Below are positions 19,443 to 42,085 of a stretch of DNA of 48,277 nt, piece by piece (the stretch's first letter is position 1; the number at the start of each line of letters is the position of its first letter). The notes beneath the pieces are model-generated. The model made no database searches. It had not been told where the DNA came from and saw only the letters and a program-made list of their open reading frames with translations. This DNA is from Christensenellaceae bacterium (lineage in GTDB: Bacteria > Bacillota > Clostridia > Christensenellales > Borkfalkiaceae): assembly GCA_045631625.1 (NCBI GenBank), contig JAZQVG010000167.1, positions 1-48,277 of the forward strand, given 5' to 3'. The translations under genes were made by a program, and so were the position numbers.

Positions 19443-21389
19443 TTACAAAATTCCCGAAAAATTTTTATGAAGTTCTTTAATTGTGCCTAATCTTTGCTTT
19501 TTATAAATAAATTCTTCGGCAAACATAGCCATACAATCGGGTGCGTCATCGGGGTTAGTTTTCTTTTGACCTTCCAATGAACTCCAATTACATAAATATT
19601 GCATAAACAACCTTAATTGGTGTCCTTGTGGCAATGTTTCGGGGTTAGGGAACTCCATATTTTCTTTGATAGTTTCTTCCATAGCAAGTATTCTACTCGC
19701 TTTATTTGATTTTTGACCTTTGCGACTTGTGTATCTATCCCTAAACTTACAAGATTTATAACCCATTTGACCGCAAATCATTTTAAGTAAAGCACTTGTA
19801 GTATTACTTGTATTGCTTTCTAAACAACACTCAATAGTTCGTGTGTCTATAAGTTTGCGACAAACTTTTTTTGCAAAAGTATTATTCCTATCTTCATTTA
19901 CACCAAGAGATTTTTGCTCGAATATACAATCCATTAAACGATATTTGCCATTTTGTAAATTTTTTCTAAAAATAGGCATTACAAAGAAGTCGTTACCGCT
20001 TTTTCTCGTTGTATCAACCATTGTCACCGCATAATTATCAACTGTGCCTTTTCCTACAAACCTAAAATCATAGGTATTTAAAAACCTAATATCGAAAGTT
20101 TTAGGCTCTCTACTATCTCTTTTTTGCCTATAAATAAGGTTGTAAACATAGGGCTTGCCACGATTTTCAAAGTATTGCCTTTTACTAACCAATTTTTTAT
20201 CGGTGTATAATTCGGGGGCTATACTATGACCTTCGCTATCTTCAATGTCTACAAGACAAGTAAAACATTTGCCATCGGGCGTTACTTTTATAAACTTAAA
20301 TTTAGGCAGTTTTTTTAACCCTTCCTTTTCCCAAATATCAATAAACGAGTTTTGAGTGTCATATTGGTTATACATTGTGCCTTGAATAAGAATAGGCGAG
20401 TTATCATCGTCACTTCTATCCATAACGTCAGACATTACTTTATCGGTTATTGCCTTGTGCCTTTCGTCATTATCCATTTCGTCTTGACCATTTGATAAGT
20501 CGTCAAGTACCGCACCGAGCATAGAACGCTTACCGTTGATACCTGCTTCTACACCGAACATAAATATACTATCGCTTACTTCGGGGTTGCAATCTTTTAA
20601 AAGCAACTTTTCAACACTTCTATTCTTCCAACAATCTAATTGCCCTTTCGCATTTATATACTTTCTTATTTCGGGGAATAAGTTTAACCAAACCTTATCT
20701 TCTATCATTTTAGCACATTGGTCGCCATAGTTGTTAGCGTTTGTGCCGTTGTTAGTCATACGAATAAGCCCACTTTCGCCATATCTTATCCAAAAGTGCA
20801 TAATCATAAGATTAGTGTAGCAGTTCGCCGCATAAGTCTTACCACTTGAAGGTGGTAAACAAGTAACCCCACGATTAGGGTTAAAGCCGTCAATATGGTC
20901 TATACCAAGTGCCGTTTCTAAAACCCTATCATAGCAAAAACAAGGCTCAACTAATAAAGTCAATCTTCTTGGCACTTTTTGCTTGTTGCGTTCTCTATCC
21001 ATATCGAAAACTCGCATAACTTGTAAAGTATTCCAACGAGCCGATATATAAAGCATTTTGTTGCGATTATCTATTAAATCACCCTTTTCTTCGGCACTAA
21101 TACTTGATTTGCCTTTGCCACCAATAAAATATGAAAGCAAACTTTCCATTGTTTCATACAAAAGCAATGCCCTTTTAGATATTTCATTGTCAAAAAATAT
21201 AATGTCTTGTGTAGGTATTGACCTATAGGCGTGTAAATATAACTCTTGCCCTTTAGATATGTTTTGGCTTATATAAATAGCAAGATTAAATTTCTCTACT
21301 TTATTTTCCGTAGCCTTTAGTTTACTCAAGTATTTGTCTATAAAGGCTAATAAAGAGTTAAATTTCGGTGTCTTTATCGCAGTAGTCAT
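19443..21389 (-). CDS. terL: terminase large subunit
   Basis: 648 aa. Walker A-like LPPSSGKT, Walker B-like GAVLDDLS, and a C-terminal nuclease-type acidic motif (MVDTTRKSGNDFFV). The portal gene follows. Confidence 0.8.
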   Translation of the reverse strand: MTTAIKTPKFNSLLAFIDKYLSKLKATENKVEKFNLAIYISQNISKGQELYLHAYRSIPTQDIIFFDNEISKRALLLYETMESLLSYFIGGKGKSSISAEEKGDLIDNRNKMLYISARWNTLQVMRVFDMDRERNKQKVPRRLTLLVEPCFCYDRVLETALGIDHIDGFNPNRGVTCLPPSSGKTYAANCYTNLMIMHFWIRYGESGLIRMTNNGTNANNYGDQCAKMIEDKVWLNLFPEIRKYINAKGQLDCWKNRSVEKLLLKDCNPEVSDSIFMFGVEAGINGKRSMLGAVLDDLSNGQDEMDNDERHKAITDKVMSDVMDRSDDDNSPILIQGTMYNQYDTQNSFIDIWEKEGLKKLPKFKFIKVTPDGKCFTCLVDIEDSEGHSIAPELYTDKKLVSKRQYFENRGKPYVYNLIYRQKRDSREPKTFDIRFLNTYDFRFVGKGTVDNYAVTMVDTTRKSGNDFFVMPIFRKNLQNGKYRLMDCIFEQKSLGVNEDRNNTFAKKVCRKLIDTRTIECCLESNTSNTTSALLKMICGQMGYKSCKFRDRYTSRKGQKSNKASRILAMEETIKENMEFPNPETLPQGHQLRLFMQYLCNWSSLEGQKKTNPDDAPDCMAMFAEEFIYKKQRLGTIKELHKNFSGIL

Positions 21390-34978: not shown

Positions 34979-35158
34979 ATGAAACCTAATCAAATCAAAG
35001 AATTAAGGGAAGAACTTATATTAGACCAAAAGCAATTTGCGATATTATTTGGCGTATCACGAACCACTATTAGCGATTGGGAAAACGGAAAAACTAAACC
35101 ATCTTTTGCGAATATGAGAAAATTAAGAGATATGTATAATAAGCATATAGTTAAATAA
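34979..35158 (+). CDS. XRE-family HTH regulator (Cro/CI-type)
   Basis: Start at MKPNQ (AAGGAG RBS). QKQFAILFGVSRTTISDWENGKTKPS is a canonical XRE HTH. Confidence 0.75.
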   Translation: MKPNQIKELREELILDQKQFAILFGVSRTTISDWENGKTKPSFANMRKLRDMYNKHIVK

Positions 35159-35171
35159 AAGGAGTAATAAA

Positions 35172-35348
35172 ATGGCAACTGAAAAACTTTATACACTTGA
35201 AGAAACGGCAAAGCAACTTGGTGTAAAAACAAGAACTATGTATAATTATATGAGAGATAAAAAAGTTCTTGGAATTAAGTTAGGCAAATCTTGGAAAATT
35301 AAGAAAAGCGAAATTGATTATATTAAAGAAAATGGTTTAAGACAATAA
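35172..35348 (+). CDS. excisionase/MerR-type HTH DNA-binding protein (58 aa, not in ORF track)
   Basis: ATG at 35172 with AAGGAG RBS. LYTLEETAKQLGVKTRTMYNYMRDKKVLGIKLGKSWKIKKSEIDYI matches the HTH_17/Xis pattern. Confidence 0.65.
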   Translation: MATEKLYTLEETAKQLGVKTRTMYNYMRDKKVLGIKLGKSWKIKKSEIDYIKENGLRQ

Positions 35349-35360
35349 AGGAGCAACATT

Positions 35361-37169
35361 ATGAAATTTACACGACTAATTAAATTACAAATAGAGAATT
35401 TTAAAGGCATAGCAAACGGCAATTTTGTTTTCAATGGCGAAAACACCGAAATCGTAGCCGACGTTATGCAAGGCAAATCAACTATCAAAGACGCTTATTT
35501 ATGGTGTTTAGGTATGGAAATCGACAATTTCTACCCTTGCGACAAAGACAATAAAATTATCGAAGGGTTAGAAACGAAAGTTGAACTCACACTTGATATT
35601 GACGGCATTGAATATGTTTTGAGCCGTAGTGCAAAAGTTAAGTATAAAAACAAAGTGTTTGACGGCTACAAAAAAGATATGTTTGAGTTTGACCGAGTGC
35701 CTTGCAATACCACCGAGTACAAAACCAAACTTTGCGACCTTTTAGGTGTAGATAATTTTGACACCCTTAAATACTTGACTATATTAAATTATTTTAATGA
35801 GCAAGTAAATTGGAAAGACCGTAGAGCATTGATTTACGATTTATTCGTTGACAAGACTGCTATTGATAGCCTTAAAGACAATGAAAAGAATAGCCTTATA
35901 AGAAAAGAATTGTTAAAGGGCAAAACAAGTGCCGATATTAACACTATGCTTAATAGCGAAAACAATAGCCTTGTTGATAGCAAGCGAAAGAACGAAATCT
36001 TACTTGCCGACAAACAAAACGAATTAAGTGGTTTTGCGAATATTGAATATGCAAGTATTGAAACCGAATTAGAAGTCGTAGAAGGCGAAATAAAGGGCGA
36101 AGAAGATAGGGTTAGAGCAATTAACCAAGCCGACAATAAAAAGGCGTTAGAGAGCCAAATAAAGTCGTTAGAAGTGGACTTGCGAGTTGCACAAGGCGAA
36201 GATAAACTCAAAAAAGAAGAAATTGAAAGAAAAATAGGCACTTGCGAAGTAAATGTTGATTATCTTAAAGCAGACGGAGAAAGCCTTGAAAAAGACATTG
36301 AAAAGTACACAAAAGAATATAACGATTTAAAGGTTGAAGAATTTAAAAATGATATGGCTACTTGTCCTTATTGCAAGCAACCTTTACCGTTAAGTGAAAT
36401 CGAAAGTAAAAAAGCCTACTTTGAAGATTATAAAGAAAAGCAATTAGAAAACCTTAAAGAAGTTATTATTAAAGATAGGAAAGAACTTGAAGAATTAAAG
36501 CAACATTACACTTTCAAACTTGCTTTATTAGAAAACGCTAAACAAGAATTAGCCGACTTTAAACCAAACGAAAAGATTGGCGAGTTGTCAAGTAAAATTT
36601 TACAACTCAAAGAAGAACTTGCAAAGTGCGAAAACAACGTAATCGACACTTCATACCTTGAAGAACTCAAAGCAAGGCGAAACTTCCTTATCGTTGAACT
36701 TGGCAAAAAAGATAGCCACGAAAAGTTAAAGGCAAAAATCAACCAACTTATTGCCGAACAAAAAGAACTCGTAAATGTAGAAATTGAATTGGCTAAAAAA
36801 AGAAGTCAGTTAGAAGAATATACACTTGATATTATCGCATTAGTAAATGATAGTATTAACTCGCATTTTGACGGTGTTAAATTTAAGTTGTTTGAAGAAT
36901 TAACGGCTACTGCTTCAAAGTCGATAAAAGAAACGCTTATTTGCCTTAACAATGGCGTAGATTATGTCGCACAAAGCACTGGACAAAAAGCCAACTCTAA
37001 TTGCATTATCGTTAGCACTTTACAAAAAAGATTAGGAGTGAATTTACCAATTTGGCTTGATGACGCTTCAATCTTGAACTTGAAGAACGAACCAAACAAT
37101 CAACTTATCTATTTACTTAACCAAAAAGGCAAAGAGTTAGATTGTGTGAAAATTAAGGAGATATACTAA
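35361..37169 (+). CDS. Rad50/SbcC-like ABC ATPase with coiled coil and CxxC zinc hook
   Basis: 602 aa. N-terminal IENFKGI...VADVMQGKSTIKDAYLW is a Walker A variant (A instead of the first G). The central ~320 aa are K/E/L coiled coil, with CPYC (about 36362-36373) at the midpoint. C-terminal QSTGQK is signature-like and IWLDDAS is Walker B. Confidence 0.65.
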   Translation: MKFTRLIKLQIENFKGIANGNFVFNGENTEIVADVMQGKSTIKDAYLWCLGMEIDNFYPCDKDNKIIEGLETKVELTLDIDGIEYVLSRSAKVKYKNKVFDGYKKDMFEFDRVPCNTTEYKTKLCDLLGVDNFDTLKYLTILNYFNEQVNWKDRRALIYDLFVDKTAIDSLKDNEKNSLIRKELLKGKTSADINTMLNSENNSLVDSKRKNEILLADKQNELSGFANIEYASIETELEVVEGEIKGEEDRVRAINQADNKKALESQIKSLEVDLRVAQGEDKLKKEEIERKIGTCEVNVDYLKADGESLEKDIEKYTKEYNDLKVEEFKNDMATCPYCKQPLPLSEIESKKAYFEDYKEKQLENLKEVIIKDRKELEELKQHYTFKLALLENAKQELADFKPNEKIGELSSKILQLKEELAKCENNVIDTSYLEELKARRNFLIVELGKKDSHEKLKAKINQLIAEQKELVNVEIELAKKRSQLEEYTLDIIALVNDSINSHFDGVKFKLFEELTATASKSIKETLICLNNGVDYVAQSTGQKANSNCIIVSTLQKRLGVNLPIWLDDASILNLKNEPNNQLIYLLNQKGKELDCVKIKEIY

Positions 37170-38284
37170 TGCACTTAACATATCAAGAAAAATTAAAAGG
37201 TAGGAAAGTTGGTGTTGTGTTTGGCTCTTTTGCCCCACTTCATCAAGGGCATTTAGATTTAATAATGAGAGCAAAAAAAGAAAATGACGGTGGTTGCGTT
37301 GTAATTGTATGTGGCTATGACGGAGATAAAGGCGAACCTTTAATGCCACATAAAAAGCGTTATCGTTATGTAAGAGAGTTTTTTGCCGATGATGAACTTG
37401 TTTCCGTTTATGCAATTAACGACACCGAAATTAAAATTGGAAAATATCCAAGCGGTTGGGAAGGGTGGCTAAAAGAATTTAATTCTATTTGGGAAAATGC
37501 AGTATCAAATTGTTTTGACATCGAAAGAATATGGTATGTTGGAGAACAAGAATATTATAATGACCTTATTGAAAGACACGAAAAAGCAGTTCTTGTTAAT
37601 AGGAAAGAAAATCTTATTAGTGCAACAATGATACGCCAAAACCCTATAAAATATTGGGATAAAATAACTTTCCCTTTCCGTAGAGTTTTTAGTACAAATA
37701 TACTTATTATAGGAACTGCAAGTGAAGGTAAAAGCGTTTTAACTAAAGATTTAGGAAAATATTTTAATGCTCCATATAGTTGGGAGTGGGCAAGAGATTA
37801 TATGATTGAAAGTTGTTTGTCTGATTGGGAAATAGAAAGCACCGATTTTATGGCTTTTCTTGAAGGGCAATATAATCTTAATAAAAAACTAATAAATTCT
37901 CACGAAAATCACGGGGTTTTCTTTGCGGATAGTGACGCTATGACTACAAGAATGTATGCCGAACAATACGCAAAAGAAGAAAGTTGTGTTTTTACACAAG
38001 ACGAATTTGAAAAAATTGCAATTATGGCTGATGAATATACAAGAAAAAGCAAATGGGATAAGATTTATTTGCTTTGTCCTAAAGGTAAATTCGTTGACGA
38101 CCACTCTCGTTTTATGATACACGCAGGTATGGAAAAAAGACAAGCATTATTTGATATACTTTGCGAAAATATAAAAAGAACAGGTAATTGGGATAAAGTA
38201 ACTATTCTTGATGGTGGTTATTGGAAAAACTTTGAAAAAATAGTTAAAGATGTAAAGGAGATTATTGAAAATGGGAAAAATTAA
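37169..38284 (+). CDS. nadR: bifunctional NMN adenylyltransferase / ribosylnicotinamide kinase NadR (no N-terminal HTH)
   Basis: 371 aa. GVVFGSFAPLHQGHLDLI matches E. coli NadR GVVFGKFYPLHTGHIYLI. ISATMIRQNPIKYWDKI matches ISGAQIRENPFRYWEYI. The kinase P-loop IIGTASEGKSVLTKDLG matches ILGGESSGKSTLVNKLA. SDAMTTRMY matches TDFVTTQAF. Confidence 0.85.
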   Translation: MHLTYQEKLKGRKVGVVFGSFAPLHQGHLDLIMRAKKENDGGCVVIVCGYDGDKGEPLMPHKKRYRYVREFFADDELVSVYAINDTEIKIGKYPSGWEGWLKEFNSIWENAVSNCFDIERIWYVGEQEYYNDLIERHEKAVLVNRKENLISATMIRQNPIKYWDKITFPFRRVFSTNILIIGTASEGKSVLTKDLGKYFNAPYSWEWARDYMIESCLSDWEIESTDFMAFLEGQYNLNKKLINSHENHGVFFADSDAMTTRMYAEQYAKEESCVFTQDEFEKIAIMADEYTRKSKWDKIYLLCPKGKFVDDHSRFMIHAGMEKRQALFDILCENIKRTGNWDKVTILDGGYWKNFEKIVKDVKEIIENGKN

Positions 38285-38963
38285 AAATTGGTTTTATAAT
38301 GAATATATAAAAGATTGGAAGGTGTTTGATTATGTGTTTTTATTTGGTTTACTTGCCGTTCAACTTGCTATGACACCATTTATGATAGATAGTGGTTTAT
38401 CTATTGGTTGGAATATATTTACATTGTTTGCAAGTTTTATAGGAACTCTTGCTACAATAATTTGTGCAAAAGGTAAAATGAGTTATTACGTTTGGGGTTT
38501 CATTCAAACAATTATGTTCTTGATTTTCAACATAAAATTAAAATTATGGGTTGAAAGTGCCGAACAAGTTTATTATCTAATAATTATGGTTGTTGGCGTT
38601 TTTGTTTGGAATAAAAACATAAACAACAAGACAAGTTCTATAAAAGCGAAAAAGTTAAGCCCACTAAAAATGATTTTTATGATAATTGCTTTAGTTGCTT
38701 TATCGGTAGTAATTTATTTTGTAGATGTGGCTATTGGCGGAACTGCTCCATTGCTCGATACTTTAAGTTTAGCAATTTCAATAGTAGCAGGTGTGTTAAA
38801 CTCATATTGCTACAAAGAACAATGGATTTTATGGTTTGTTCTTGATGTCGTTCAAACAATTTTATACTTTGTTATTGCTCAACCTATTATGGCGGTTATG
38901 TATATTGCTTGGACTATTAACACAATCTATGGTTGGGTTAAATGGAGTGAAGTAAAAAATTAA
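38271..38963 (+). CDS. pnuC: nicotinamide riboside transporter PnuC
   Basis: The ATG at 38271 is 10 nt after AAGGAG (the track start at 38265 is TTG). About 7 TM helices. KEQWILWFVLDVVQTILYF matches E. coli PnuC ENWLLWVIINVISVVIF. The C-terminal W..N..YGW.KW motif is present. It overlaps the nadR end. Confidence 0.8.
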   Translation: MGKIKNWFYNEYIKDWKVFDYVFLFGLLAVQLAMTPFMIDSGLSIGWNIFTLFASFIGTLATIICAKGKMSYYVWGFIQTIMFLIFNIKLKLWVESAEQVYYLIIMVVGVFVWNKNINNKTSSIKAKKLSPLKMIFMIIALVALSVVIYFVDVAIGGTAPLLDTLSLAISIVAGVLNSYCYKEQWILWFVLDVVQTILYFVIAQPIMAVMYIAWTINTIYGWVKWSEVKN

Positions 38964-38988
38964 AGATTTGTATTAAAGGAGAAACATA

Positions 38989-39558
38989 ATGAAAAGATTT
39001 ATATTATTAGTATTAACAATTATTTGCTTTGCTTTACCATTCCCAAGTTGGATATATAGTATTGTCAAGACTGTACAATTTAGTGCTAATTGTGGCGATT
39101 ATATTGAACTTTCGGCAGACGCTAATTCAGTTGTTTTAGCGGAAAAACATTTGACAAGTGCAATAAATTATCTTGAAGAAAACAATCTTACGAGCGGTCA
39201 AGCAAAGTGGTTTGTAGCATATCCTAAAAATGACATTGGTTTATGGTATGAAAACTTAAAAACCGCACAATCACAATTACAAGAAATGATTAAAGACGGC
39301 AACTATACGGAACTTGAACAAAGTAATATGCTTATGAAGTTAAGGGAAACCCTTATGAATGGTGGAGAAAGCGAAAATATTACTGTGCCTTTAGCAATAT
39401 CGTTAATGCCTAACGGAACATTATTGGTTTGGCTAAATAGCGTTTTATGGATGTTTGCTTGGGCGTTAGGTGGAATTATGTGTTGGAGAACTGTAAATGC
39501 GTTTGAATATGCGTATTGTAAAAGGATAATATTCGATACAAGTCGTAGTTGTTGGTAA
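38989..39558 (+). CDS. membrane protein (N- and C-terminal TM helices), unknown function
   Basis: 189 aa with AAGGAG RBS. A signal/anchor-like N-terminus and a hydrophobic C-terminal segment flank a ~110-aa soluble domain. Confidence 0.65.
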   Translation: MKRFILLVLTIICFALPFPSWIYSIVKTVQFSANCGDYIELSADANSVVLAEKHLTSAINYLEENNLTSGQAKWFVAYPKNDIGLWYENLKTAQSQLQEMIKDGNYTELEQSNMLMKLRETLMNGGESENITVPLAISLMPNGTLLVWLNSVLWMFAWALGGIMCWRTVNAFEYAYCKRIIFDTSRSCW

Positions 39559-39572
39559 AAGGAGAATAACCA

Positions 39573-39824
39573 ATGAAAAAAACAGTTTTATCAATTAGAG
39601 ATTTTGTAATCTTGTATAATATAGTAGTTAGAGAAATAGGCTATATGGAAAGCCCAAGATTAAGTTTTTGTCTTAAGGAAGAAGAAATAGAAAAACGAGA
39701 ACAAGAATATAAAGAAAGGCTTTCTAAAAACCCTCATTACCAAGATTTATTGCGTATAAGGGAAAAACTTGGCGAACTCAATATCGAAATTGAAACGCCT
39801 AATGTGGAGATTGAAGAAAAATGA
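39573..39824 (+). CDS. small hypothetical protein
   Basis: 83 aa with AAGGAG RBS and an E/K-rich C-terminal half. Confidence 0.6.
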   Translation: MKKTVLSIRDFVILYNIVVREIGYMESPRLSFCLKEEEIEKREQEYKERLSKNPHYQDLLRIREKLGELNIEIETPNVEIEEK

Positions 39825-39899
39825 TAGATAGAACAAGAGAAATGATAAAATTAAAACAAGACGGTATGACTTATAGAGAGATAGCAAGGGGAAAGTTTT

Positions 39900-41087
39900 A
39901 TGAAAGACTTAAAAATATTTACTAACAATATAGAAGAAAAAGCAACGCAACAAATTGATTTATTATTGAACCAAGAAGCATTTAAGAATTGCAAAGTAAG
40001 AATTATGCCTGATGTTCACGCTGGAAGTGGTTGTGTAATTGGTTTTACTGCTGACTTGGGAGATAAACTAATACCTAATGTCGTTGGGGTAGATATTGGT
40101 TGTGGTATGACTTGGGTAAAACTTGCAAATAATGAAATTGATTTAGAAAAACTTGATAAAGTAATAAGAGATAATATTCCTTGTGGTATGAACGTAAGAA
40201 GTGAGAAACTACCTACCGATATAAAATTAACTGATTTATATTGTTATAATCAATTAAGAAATGTAGAATATTTAGAGTGTTCTTTGGGTAGTCTTGGTGG
40301 GGGTAATCATTTTATAGAAGTTGATAAAAACGAACAAGGAGAGTTGTATTTAATAGTTCATAGTGGAAGTAGAAATTTAGGCAAACAAGTTTGCGATATT
40401 TACCAATCACTTTCTATTGATAGGTGTTCTTTCAAAGAAGAAATGAGAGCCGAAAAGGAAAAGGCTATTAAAGAATTAACGGAAAGTAATAGAAAAACCG
40501 AAATACAAGAAACACTTAAAACGATAGAGAAAAAGTATAGTGGCAAAACTAAACTACCAAAAGACTTGTGCTATTTAGAATTAGAAGATAGAGAACATTA
40601 TTTGCACGATATGAGATTGTGTCAAAAATGGGCTAAACAAAACCGTGAATATATTATTAAAATTATATGCGAAGAAATGGGCTTTATTAAAACTAATTTA
40701 GTTCATACAATACACAATTATATAAGCGATGACAACATTGTTCGTAAAGGAGCAATATCTTGTCAAAAAGGCGAATTTGCACTAATTCCTATGAATATGA
40801 AAGACGGCTGTTTAATTGTCGTTGGTAAAGGAAATGAAGATTGGAATTGTTCAGCACCACACGGAGCAGGTCGCATAATGTCAAGAGTACAAGCAAAAAA
40901 AGTGTTATCTATGCAAGATTATCAAAACGAAATGAAAGACATTTACACAACTTCGGTTTGTCAAGAAACTATTGATGAAGCACCTATGGTTTATAAGCCT
41001 ATGCAAGAAATTATTGACAATATAAAAGATACTGCCGATATTGATAGTATTATTAAACCAATATATAATTTTAAAGCAAAAGAATAA
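39900..41087 (+). CDS. rtcB: RtcB-family 3'-phosphate RNA ligase
   Basis: 395 aa. All hallmark motifs are present: IMPDVHAGSG, GGGNHFIEVD, VHSGSRNLG, IHNY, IPMNMKDG and SAPHGAGR. Confidence 0.9.
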   Translation: MKDLKIFTNNIEEKATQQIDLLLNQEAFKNCKVRIMPDVHAGSGCVIGFTADLGDKLIPNVVGVDIGCGMTWVKLANNEIDLEKLDKVIRDNIPCGMNVRSEKLPTDIKLTDLYCYNQLRNVEYLECSLGSLGGGNHFIEVDKNEQGELYLIVHSGSRNLGKQVCDIYQSLSIDRCSFKEEMRAEKEKAIKELTESNRKTEIQETLKTIEKKYSGKTKLPKDLCYLELEDREHYLHDMRLCQKWAKQNREYIIKIICEEMGFIKTNLVHTIHNYISDDNIVRKGAISCQKGEFALIPMNMKDGCLIVVGKGNEDWNCSAPHGAGRIMSRVQAKKVLSMQDYQNEMKDIYTTSVCQETIDEAPMVYKPMQEIIDNIKDTADIDSIIKPIYNFKAKE

Positions 41088-41120
41088 ATGAAAAATTCTT
41101 AAAAAGTTTACTAAAAGTTA

Positions 41121-41149
41121 TTGACAAGTATTGAAATAAATGTTATAAT
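41121..41149 (+). promoter_or_regulatory. early promoter, TTGAAATAA-spacer family (copy 3)
   Basis: TTGACAAGTATTGAAATAAATGTTATAAT: -35 at 41121-41126, -10 TATAAT at 41144-41149, with TGt. Confidence 0.7.
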
Positions 41150-41173
41150 TGTAATAAGAAAAGGAGAGAAGAA

Positions 41174-41356
41174 ATGAACATTGACACGAAAAAAATTAGA
41201 GAGCAGTTATTCTTAACGCAAGCCGAATTTGCAAAACTAATCGGTTTGAGTGAAGTTGCGGTTTCTAAATGGGAAAGGGGTATCAACAAGCCTACCCTTA
41301 AACACCTTAAAATCATAGTCGAAATCGCAAGAGATAATGGAATTTGGGTGGAGTAG
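41174..41356 (+). CDS. XRE-family HTH regulator
   Basis: 60 aa. LTQAEFAKLIGLSEVAVSKWERGINKPT is a canonical XRE HTH. Confidence 0.75.
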   Translation: MNIDTKKIREQLFLTQAEFAKLIGLSEVAVSKWERGINKPTLKHLKIIVEIARDNGIWVE

Positions 41357-41359
41357 GGT

Positions 41360-42085
41360 ATGAACTTTCATTTTTTGTTTGAGCAGTCAGGAACATTTAA
41401 AAATGTTTTTAAGGAATTAGGGCATAATTGCTATGATTATGATATTCTAAATGAAAACGGACAAACCGACTTTGTTGTTGATTTATTCAAAGAAATAGAA
41501 AATGAATATGATAATATTGTTTACAATAAAAATATAAAAACAATCTTTACTAATATGACGAAAGAAAATGATTTTATAATTGCATTTTTCCCTTGCACTC
41601 ATTTTTGCGATGCCAATAGTTTGCAATATAGACTTTTAATTGGCGGAAAGAAAAGAGAACTTGATAAAGTTTCTATTGAAAGATTGATAAAACGAAACCA
41701 AGATAGAGCAAGATTTTTTGAAGTCTATTTGAAATTTTGTTTTATTTGCAAAGAAAAAGGTATAAAAACAATTATTGAAAACCCTGCAAGTGGGGGGGGG
41801 AATAATTATTTAGAGGTATTTAGTCCTATTGATATAGCATATAAAGAGAAAAACAGAGCATTGTTTGGAGATGACTTTAAAAAGCCAACAAATTATTTTT
41901 CAATAAATTTTGATATGAAAGAAACTTTTTATATGTTCTCTGATAACAATATCTTTACTAAAAACATATACGATATACAAAGCAAAAATGTTAGTACAGG
42001 TGGTAGAAGCCTAATAACTAAAACCTATGCAAAAAATTTTTATTTTAGATTTATAGAAAATAACATAAAGGAGCAAAATAAATGA
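41360..42085 (+). CDS. phage-type DNA (cytosine-5) methyltransferase-like protein
   Basis: 241 aa. FLFEQSGTFKNVFKELGHNCYDYDI, FFPCTHFC and IIENPASGG parallel the ACEYSG.VR.AF...GH.A.SCD / PPCTYL / ENP.G motifs of short prophage cytosine MTases, as I recall them. It contains a G9 tract. Confidence 0.5.
   Translation: MNFHFLFEQSGTFKNVFKELGHNCYDYDILNENGQTDFVVDLFKEIENEYDNIVYNKNIKTIFTNMTKENDFIIAFFPCTHFCDANSLQYRLLIGGKKRELDKVSIERLIKRNQDRARFFEVYLKFCFICKEKGIKTIIENPASGGGNNYLEVFSPIDIAYKEKNRALFGDDFKKPTNYFSINFDMKETFYMFSDNNIFTKNIYDIQSKNVSTGGRSLITKTYAKNFYFRFIENNIKEQNK
41792..41800 (+). repeat. G9 homopolymer inside the C5-MTase-like ORF
   Basis: GCA AGT GGG GGG GGG AAT encodes A-S-G-G-G-N, right after the ENP motif. 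Confidence 0.9.

Follow-up and report, generated by a model that had tools for sequence, protein, structure and literature searches.

Phage-encoded domains for nicotinamide adenine dinucleotide (NAD+) synthesis that counter NADase effectors include NadR (Iyer et al. 2022, PMC9503650), and phage NadR genes, which usually stand in an operon with PnuC, were proposed to provide a route of NAD+ reconstitution (Osterman et al. 2024). The phage NadR and PnuC pair was then named NARP3 and characterised experimentally in the form of Bas30_86/87 of phage TrudiRoth (Yan et al., Sci Adv, August 2026; PMC13464706). In that system the Bas30_87 transporter binds nicotinamide riboside (NR) with a Kd of about 0.66 uM and transports it, and the Bas30_86 NadR, which has no helix-turn-helix (HTH) domain, converts NR to nicotinamide mononucleotide (NMN) and then to NAD+. 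Both genes are required, NAD+/NADH is restored, and the pair rescues phages T7 and lambda 10^3-10^4-fold against Sir2-HerA and also counteracts DSR1 (PMC13464706). Among cellular enzymes, the NadR of L. lactis is bifunctional in the same sense, leading from NR to NMN and to NAD, with kinetics measured for both steps (PMC7221760).

Our study concerns a NadR and PnuC gene pair in a 48,277-nucleotide stretch of DNA deposited as a contig of a Christensenellaceae bacterium (JAZQVG010000167.1, assembly GCA_045631625.1); we refer to this whole stretch as the window. At a probability of about 0.72, we consider the pair to be a NARP3-type phage NAD+ reconstitution cassette, by which the NAD+ pool would be sustained in infection, chiefly against NAD+-depleting defence. 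An earlier note on this DNA, made from the sequence alone, had proposed import followed by two-step rebuilding of NAD+, as a counter-defence or a metabolic boost, and had presented it as a distinct route. The functional part of this proposal is already established for the homologue, because Yan et al. 2026 demonstrated import, conversion and rescue for Bas30_86/87; the claim to a distinct and as yet undescribed route does not hold, the route having been proposed by Osterman et al. 2024 and later named NARP3. Under the name NARP3 the system has already been characterised by experiment, and the window contributes a distant further example.

The enzyme and the transporter

The two overlapping NadR- and PnuC-like open reading frames lie where the earlier note had placed them, and Pfam and NCBIfam confirmed both families. 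The upstream gene (37169-38284, + strand) encodes an HTH-less NadR-like bifunctional enzyme of 371 amino acids, identified by Pfam, NCBIfam, PHROG and structure-sequence matches. Its nicotinamide mononucleotide adenylyltransferase (NMNAT) domain (residues 17-157; 37217..37639, + strand; Pfam CTP_transf_like, E 4e-10) carries the motifs GSFAPLHQGH (19-28), YPSGW (93-97) and ISATMIR (150-156). Its ribosylnicotinamide kinase (RNK) domain, of the P-loop type (residues 178-340; 37700..38188, + strand; Pfam AAA_28, E 2e-15), has a Walker A motif GTASEGKS (182-189), a Walker B-like FFADSD (251-256) and a lid DDHSR (310-314). As the earlier note expected, these two Pfam matches and that of the transporter to NMN_transporter were all above the gathering cut-offs. 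The protein also matched TIGR01526 nadR_NMN_Atrans (E 4e-61) and phrog_3462 (E 1e-69). The catalytic motifs align with their equivalents in the solved structures 6GYE, 1LW7 and 9x6f; the best solved-structure match is the L. lactis enzyme 6GYE (E 8e-61, residues 6-349), and the Bas30_86 structure 9x6f was matched with E 2e-23. Against NF005988, the model of trifunctional NadR over its full length, the alignment begins no earlier than profile position 58, and just 12 residues stand before the NMNAT domain; the protein therefore lacks the HTH domain, in agreement with the earlier description of an HTH-less NadR with an NMNAT motif and a kinase P-loop.

A ribosome-binding site AAGGAG can be read from the sequence upstream of nadR (37155..37160, + strand), and in a TAATG junction on the + strand, also read from the sequence, the TAA stop codon of the upstream ATPase gene shares one base with the ATG of nadR, through which NadR is translationally coupled to that ATPase.

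The downstream gene (+ strand) encodes a PnuC-family transporter. The mechanically called open reading frame runs from a TTG at 38265 to 38963 (232 amino acids); the start is most likely the ATG at 38271, giving a protein of 230 amino acids (38271-38963). An AAGGAG ribosome-binding site, read from the sequence inside the 3' end of nadR (38255..38260, + strand), lies 10 nt upstream of this ATG, and the TTG start was rejected because the spacing from the ribosome-binding site and the starts called in relatives both favour the ATG. The nadR stop region thereby overlaps the pnuC start by 14 nt (38271..38284, + strand). The transporter matched PF04973 (NMN_transporter) with E 8e-33 and 114 bits (cut-off 27.3), passed the PnuC equivalog model TIGR01528 (95 bits, cut-off 42.5) and matched phrog_1880 (E 1e-38). 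Both motifs singled out by the earlier note are present, as YKEQWILW and YGWVKW, and the WxxW(x)3[D/N] motif of the sixth transmembrane helix (TM6) reads W185-I-L-W188-F-V-L-D192. The note's count of seven transmembrane helices was one short: the AlphaFold model (pLDDT 84.8, pTM 0.80) has eight long helices, seven of them forming the Pnu core and one being an additional N-terminal transmembrane helix, as in 4QTN, the nicotinamide riboside transporter of N. mucosa. This structure was the sole significant fold match of the model in the PDB (TM 0.81) and was also found by sequence (E 1.5e-17).

Phage context, relatives and history of the pair

Profile matches to a large terminase (19443-21389, - strand), portal, major head and tape measure proteins, all on the - strand within about 10-21 kb of the window, are phage hallmarks and identify the window as phage, bearing out the earlier view that the pair is phage-borne. 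The NadR and PnuC genes lie in a + strand early/replication block that runs from about 33.6 kb to the window end and encodes HTH regulators, an SbcC-like ATPase, NadR, PnuC, a predicted membrane protein, RtcB, a methyltransferase-like protein, RecT, a metallo-hydrolase, a Band_7/SPFH protein and SSB. The pair is thus embedded among replication and recombination functions, between the SbcC-like ATPase on one side and RtcB, RecT and SSB on the other, and its base composition (32% GC in nadR, 29% in pnuC) matches that of the phage (33%).

The co-occurrence of NadR and PnuC in other phages, which the earlier note had put forward as a check, was borne out. In a tblastn search of deposited phage records we found NadR-like sequences in 439 and PnuC-like sequences in 397, with nearly matched counts per genus: Salmonella 171 and 166, Klebsiella 43 and 40, Escherichia 37 and 34, Bacillus 24 and 22, Lactobacillus 18 and 18, Prevotella (the Lak phages) 15 and 15, and Erwinia 14 and 14. 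The two genes were adjacent in every phage record inspected, and Lactobacillus phage LP65 (AY682195), among the oldest hits, already has an annotated pair. Some records depart from this matched pattern. A Bas30_86-type NadR fragment matched 792 phage records, 355 of them from Vibrio, against only 14 Vibrio records matched by the NadR of the window and 40 by its PnuC; these counts suggest that in many Vibrio phages a NadR-like gene may stand without a detectable PnuC partner. Enterococcus phages gave 27 NadR-like matches, yet they are absent among the PnuC match genera listed.

Closer relatives come from metagenomes. The large protein database held 2,711 NadR homologues at E<=1e-20, and more than 100 of them, all metagenomic, are 72-98% identical to the NadR of the window. 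Among the fetched loci with a NadR more than 60% identical and with sequence beyond NadR, 25 of 26 had PnuC directly 3' of NadR, either overlapping it or no more than 20 nt away; the usual overlap is 4-26 nt, and most related loci have one of a size like the 14 nt of the window. A scan of single IMG/VR proteins yielded three loci only, and co-occurrence was therefore judged from the other sources. In the GTDB representatives, NadR copies at 62-81% identity were found only in contigs of metagenome-assembled genomes labelled Clostridia, Eubacteriales, Lachnospiraceae or Ruminococcus, plus a few implausible Paludibacteraceae/Bacteroidales bins, which fit phage contigs swept into bins. These copies were sampled from goat, sheep, yak, deer, rabbit and human gut, and below them there is a sharp step to the next matches, the chromosomal NadRs of Streptococcus at about 39-43%.

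Two chromosomal contexts bear on the origin of the pair. Locus L020 (2089-7617) carries a NadR 67% identical to that of the window on a bacterial chromosome, with cotJ-like genes, glyA and the genes of ribosomal proteins L7/L12 and L10, and with no adjacent pnuC; this context points to an origin of the NadR family in spore-forming Eubacteriales, the likely host group. The order nadR then pnuC, with the genes adjacent, also occurs on Streptococcus chromosomes, which suggests that the phage module is a captured cellular salvage operon.

The two genes have co-diverged in most related loci, as judged from the identities of NadR and PnuC respectively: 89 and 89% between L008 and L012, 76 and 65% between L008 and L003, and 76 and 80% between L003 and L018. 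The window does not follow this pattern. Its NadR is 81-82% identical to those of L008 and L012, with a PnuC only 38-39% identical to theirs; the PnuC belongs to a second lineage (relatives at 68-94%), whose NadRs are 68-71% (L017, L094) or 47% (L093) identical to that of the window. Against L093 the figures are 75% for PnuC and only 47% for NadR. To judge from these pairwise identity matrices, in which the window was set beside L003-L028, L093 and L094, the incongruent histories indicate that the transporter was probably swapped at the gene boundary. Since the NadR of the window is L008-like up to its C-terminus, the exchange point would be the gene boundary itself, with the overlap architecture kept. 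We have not found this incongruence between NadR and PnuC in the literature, as far as we searched.

The phage itself represents a lineage of about 50-58 kb from animal-gut Clostridia/Eubacteriales, without cultured relatives. No match was obtained in 50,697 deposited phage genomes, either by megablast of positions 35000-41500 or by a tblastn search with the large terminase (E<=1e-5). Most of the structural and early open reading frames of the window have no Pfam family. A sister phage, L001, is a 57.6-kb metagenomic contig whose NadR and PnuC are 98% and 97% identical to those of the window; the block of SbcC-like, NadR and PnuC genes is 95.4% identical over 3.6 kb, and the flanking cassettes are mosaic. 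The first gene of this block encodes an SbcC/SMC-like ATPase of 602 amino acids (35361-37169, + strand; phrog_77, E 4e-36), whose stop codon forms the TAATG junction with nadR. Directly 3' of PnuC lies a gene with its own ribosome-binding site for a predicted membrane protein of 189 amino acids (38989-39558, + strand), which gave no Pfam, NCBIfam or PHROG match; in the sister contig this slot is filled by an open reading frame of 140 amino acids. RtcB RNA ligase, two genes 3' of PnuC (39900-41087, + strand; Pfam E 1.5e-58, phrog_1075 E 3e-128), is present in the window only, and L001 carries other small genes at that place. RtcB is followed by a perfect sigma-70 consensus promoter (41121-41149, + strand; TTGACA, a 17-nt spacer, TATAAT and an extended TG), the sole 12/12 match within 33-42 kb, and then by the methyltransferase-like gene at 41360. 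The + strand showed no terminator-like site in the 33-42 kb interval; it follows that the pair is probably part of a long transcript, with no definable transcription unit of its own. We found no tRNA gene in the window (ARAGORN) and no NAD+ riboswitch or pnuC-motif RNA (Rfam, gathering thresholds); Pfam scans of 40 other open reading frames of the window, mostly empty, revealed neither an integrase nor a further NAD/ADP-ribose-related gene.

The backbones that carry the pair elsewhere are phage-like and very different from one another, on contigs from 34 kb to 325 kb. The 34.5-kb contig L008 encodes a replisome organiser, a resolvase, Lar and a terminase; L003 and L004, on contigs of 80-160 kb, encode a Pnkp-like kinase/phosphatase/RNA ligase (RNA_lig_T4_1 in L003), a CCA-adding enzyme and RlaP; the 325-kb contig L006 encodes RlaP and an AAA_33 kinase. 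Locus L093 (1662-13491 of a 260-kb, jumbo-phage-like metagenomic contig) brings together within 12 kb NADAR, a NARP1-like pair (Pribosyltran and NAMPT-like), the NARP3-like NadR and PnuC, RlaP, Thg1 and an NAD synthase. RNA-repair genes recur beside the pair: its neighbour of this kind is RtcB in the window, and Pnkp-like/RNA ligase, CCA-adding enzyme, RlaP or Thg1 on other contigs. These recurrent neighbours, and the NARP1-like pair and NADAR of L093, are circumstantially consistent with a counter-defence neighbourhood.

Proposed function of the cassette and the binding-site signature

What we observed directly are the genes and their architecture, the catalytic motifs, the fold of the transporter, the phage setting and the conservation of the coupled pair; the substrate, both enzyme activities, the time at which the genes are expressed and the part played in counter-defence are predicted from the homologues, as follows. 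Both genes would be expressed in the + strand early/replication block, on a long transcript and translationally coupled. PnuC would insert in the host membrane and admit external NR by diffusion. NR would be phosphorylated by the RNK domain of NadR to NMN, which would be trapped in the cell, and the NMNAT domain would adenylate NMN to NAD+, so that the host NAD+ pool could be raised or restored during infection. The selected benefit would most likely be survival of NAD+-depleting abortive infection of the SIR2, TIR or DSR type, with general NAD+ supply as a secondary gain.

Several points weigh against this reading. It transfers function by homology, at only 28% (NadR) and 23% (PnuC) identity to the validated pair, and the NadR of the window falls below the NCBIfam equivalog cut-offs (207 bits against 341 for TIGR01526 and 127 against 201 for NF005988); both Pfam domains are above their cut-offs, and the protein is a divergent NadR of the Gram-positive type. 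The NAD+-depleting opponent in the host is an assumption, as is the availability in the gut niche of the external NR on which the pathway would depend. The binding site of PnuC raises a further difficulty. In Bas30_87, mutation of N45, Q94 and N180 abolished NR binding (PMC13464706), and the equivalents in the window are G58, M106 and D192, so that the NR residues of the prototype are not kept. This set of residues is specific to the prototype rather than family-wide: at the N45 position N. mucosa PnuC likewise has G. In that protein Q124, Q196, N214 and Y242 are reported to coordinate NR (Yan et al., PMC13464706); an alignment anchored by invariant flanking motifs places M106, G174, D192 and W214 of the window opposite them, and three of the four coordinating residues count as changed.

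The changed residues form a signature that is not peculiar to the window. M (C in two loci), D and W are common to the related gut-phage and Lak PnuCs that we examined, and Q, N and Y/F occupy these positions in Bas30_87, GAP32, Bacillus phage Tsamsa, the chromosomal PnuCs of Streptococcus and N. mucosa PnuC. We have not found this M/G/D/W as against Q/Q/N/Y signature in the literature, as far as we searched, and it is the weakest place in the homology argument. From the sequences, we read it as a probable difference in the mode of binding of cationic NR rather than as a new substrate, because the PnuC subfamily with M/D/W is always coupled to NadR. The gut-phage subfamily (the Lak PnuC examined and many Clostridia-phage contigs included) combines the co-varied Q to M, N to D and Y to W changes with an importer exchanged between NadR lineages; it is a speculative idea, and one that we think improbable, that this marks a NARP3 variant which binds NR differently or brings in another precursor, one fitted to the anaerobic gut. 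In that case NARP3 would be a modular kit of an enzyme plus a swappable importer.

The signature also lies behind the proposal that the substrate of the PnuC of the window is a different pyridine or vitamin nucleoside, for instance nicotinic acid riboside or another cationic vitamin, and that the cassette feeds a modified pathway. This would account for M106, G174, D192 and W214 in place of the Q, Q, N and Y of the N. mucosa protein, and D also occurs in this motif of PnuT, a thiamine transporter (PMC5749112). The WxxW(x)3[D/N] family motif, however, permits D (PMC5749112), an acidic residue would be compatible with the cationic pyridinium of NR, the TIGR01528 equivalog cut-off was passed, and the constant partner of this subfamily is a NadR whose kinase domain acts on NR; we regard a change of substrate as very improbable. 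Hardly credible is the suggestion that these are host genes, present as passengers or as adjoining chromosome, which do nothing for the phage. The 67% identical NadR on the genuine bacterial chromosome of L020 does imply that the genes are of cellular origin, but the pair stands intact and translationally coupled inside the phage replication/recombination block, has kept 95% nucleotide identity in the sister phage while its neighbours vary, and recurs in many unrelated phage backbones. The specific idea that the pair is the host flank of a prophage was rejected on the phage gene context and the conservation in the sister phage.

It is more difficult to set aside the explanation that these are general auxiliary metabolic genes which boost NAD+ for replication, for example in hosts that are auxotrophic for niacin or NR or are limited in nutrients, with no defence involved. 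PHROGs files both families under 'moron, auxiliary metabolic gene and host takeover', the jumbo-phage literature treats NadR/PnuC as auxiliary metabolic genes for NAD+ synthesis (PMC11662467), and in Streptococcus the arrangement of nadR followed by pnuC is an ordinary chromosomal salvage operon, in keeping with a cellular origin. Moreover, profile scans of the window found no NADase-related or defence-sensing gene, and a NADase opponent is only assumed. On the other hand, the validated homologue rescues phages 10^3-10^4-fold specifically against NAD+-depleting systems, and the repeated association of the pair with RNA-repair genes, like the NARP1-like pair and NADAR that accompany it in L093, looks like counter-defence clustering. 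We therefore consider a purely metabolic role rather unlikely and favour the NARP3-type counter-defence cassette, bearing in mind that the two roles are not mutually exclusive.

Comparison with known systems

With the pair in the window, the range of NARP3-type cassettes extends beyond phages of Enterobacteriaceae, contrary to the suggestion of the founding paper, and the relatives of the pair show that such cassettes are common and mobile in animal-gut Firmicute phages, from phages of about 35 kb to contigs of more than 300 kb. This could be of use in gauging the spread of NAD+-centred conflicts in gut microbiomes and in choosing diverse NadR/PnuC pairs for phage engineering. As to how the module evolves, the exchange of the transporter and the changed residues of its binding site offer modest leads that can be tested.

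The predicted outcome, NAD+ rebuilt to escape an NAD+-depleting defence, is that of NARP1 (Adps and Namat) and NARP2 (Nampt and Nmnat; Osterman et al. 2024). These two pathways use intracellular breakdown products, ADP-ribose and nicotinamide in the one and nicotinamide and phosphoribosyl pyrophosphate in the other, and have no transporter, whereas the pair of the window would depend on external NR. Among deposited phages the best matches (about 40% for NadR and about 30% for PnuC) are the adjacent and already annotated pairs of LP65 (orf83-85), LpeD, the Lak megaphages, Bacillus phage Tsamsa and Cronobacter phage GAP32; the PnuC of Lak has the M/D/W signature of the window. All of these are larger phages (130-550 kb), none has genes more than 60% identical to those of the window, and in LP65 and Tsamsa the gene order is reversed.

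Each protein also has a solved relative outside phages. The closest to the window NadR is the L. lactis enzyme (6GYE/6GYF/6GZO), which likewise has no HTH domain and has the same layout of Walker A, Walker B and lid (PMC7221760), but is a chromosomal housekeeping enzyme, whereas the NadR of the window is phage-borne. The N. mucosa PnuC (4QTN) shares with the transporter of the window its fold, the eight helices including the N-terminal one, the WxxW motif and the gate tryptophans, at 26% identity and with the replacement of Q124, Q196, N214 and Y242 described above.

The system closest in kind is NARP3 itself, that is Bas30_86/87 of Escherichia phage TrudiRoth and the identical proteins of orf77/78 of Salmonella phage S114. 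The window shares with it the phage-borne order of NadR then PnuC, an HTH-less NadR made of NMNAT and RNK domains with the same catalytic motifs, and the PnuC fold. Identity is 28% for NadR (E 6e-29) and 23% for PnuC (E 4e-17). Among the mutation-sensitive, prototype-specific residues of Bas30_86 (K10/F11, S37, E80/P84/G89, F110, S112/D115, E230 and D275), F11, G89 and D275 are identical in the window (F21, G96 and D297), K10, S37, P84 and E230 are replaced by S20, G49, G91 and N238, and the alignment over 100-125 is ambiguous; at several of the tested positions the NadR of the window follows that of L. lactis. The two systems further differ in their gene junctions (a 14-nt overlap in the window, a 1-nt gap in S114), in their phages (about 50-58 kb and without a cultured relative, as against T5-like) and in their hosts, gut Clostridia/Eubacteriales for the window and Enterobacteriaceae for NARP3 as first described.

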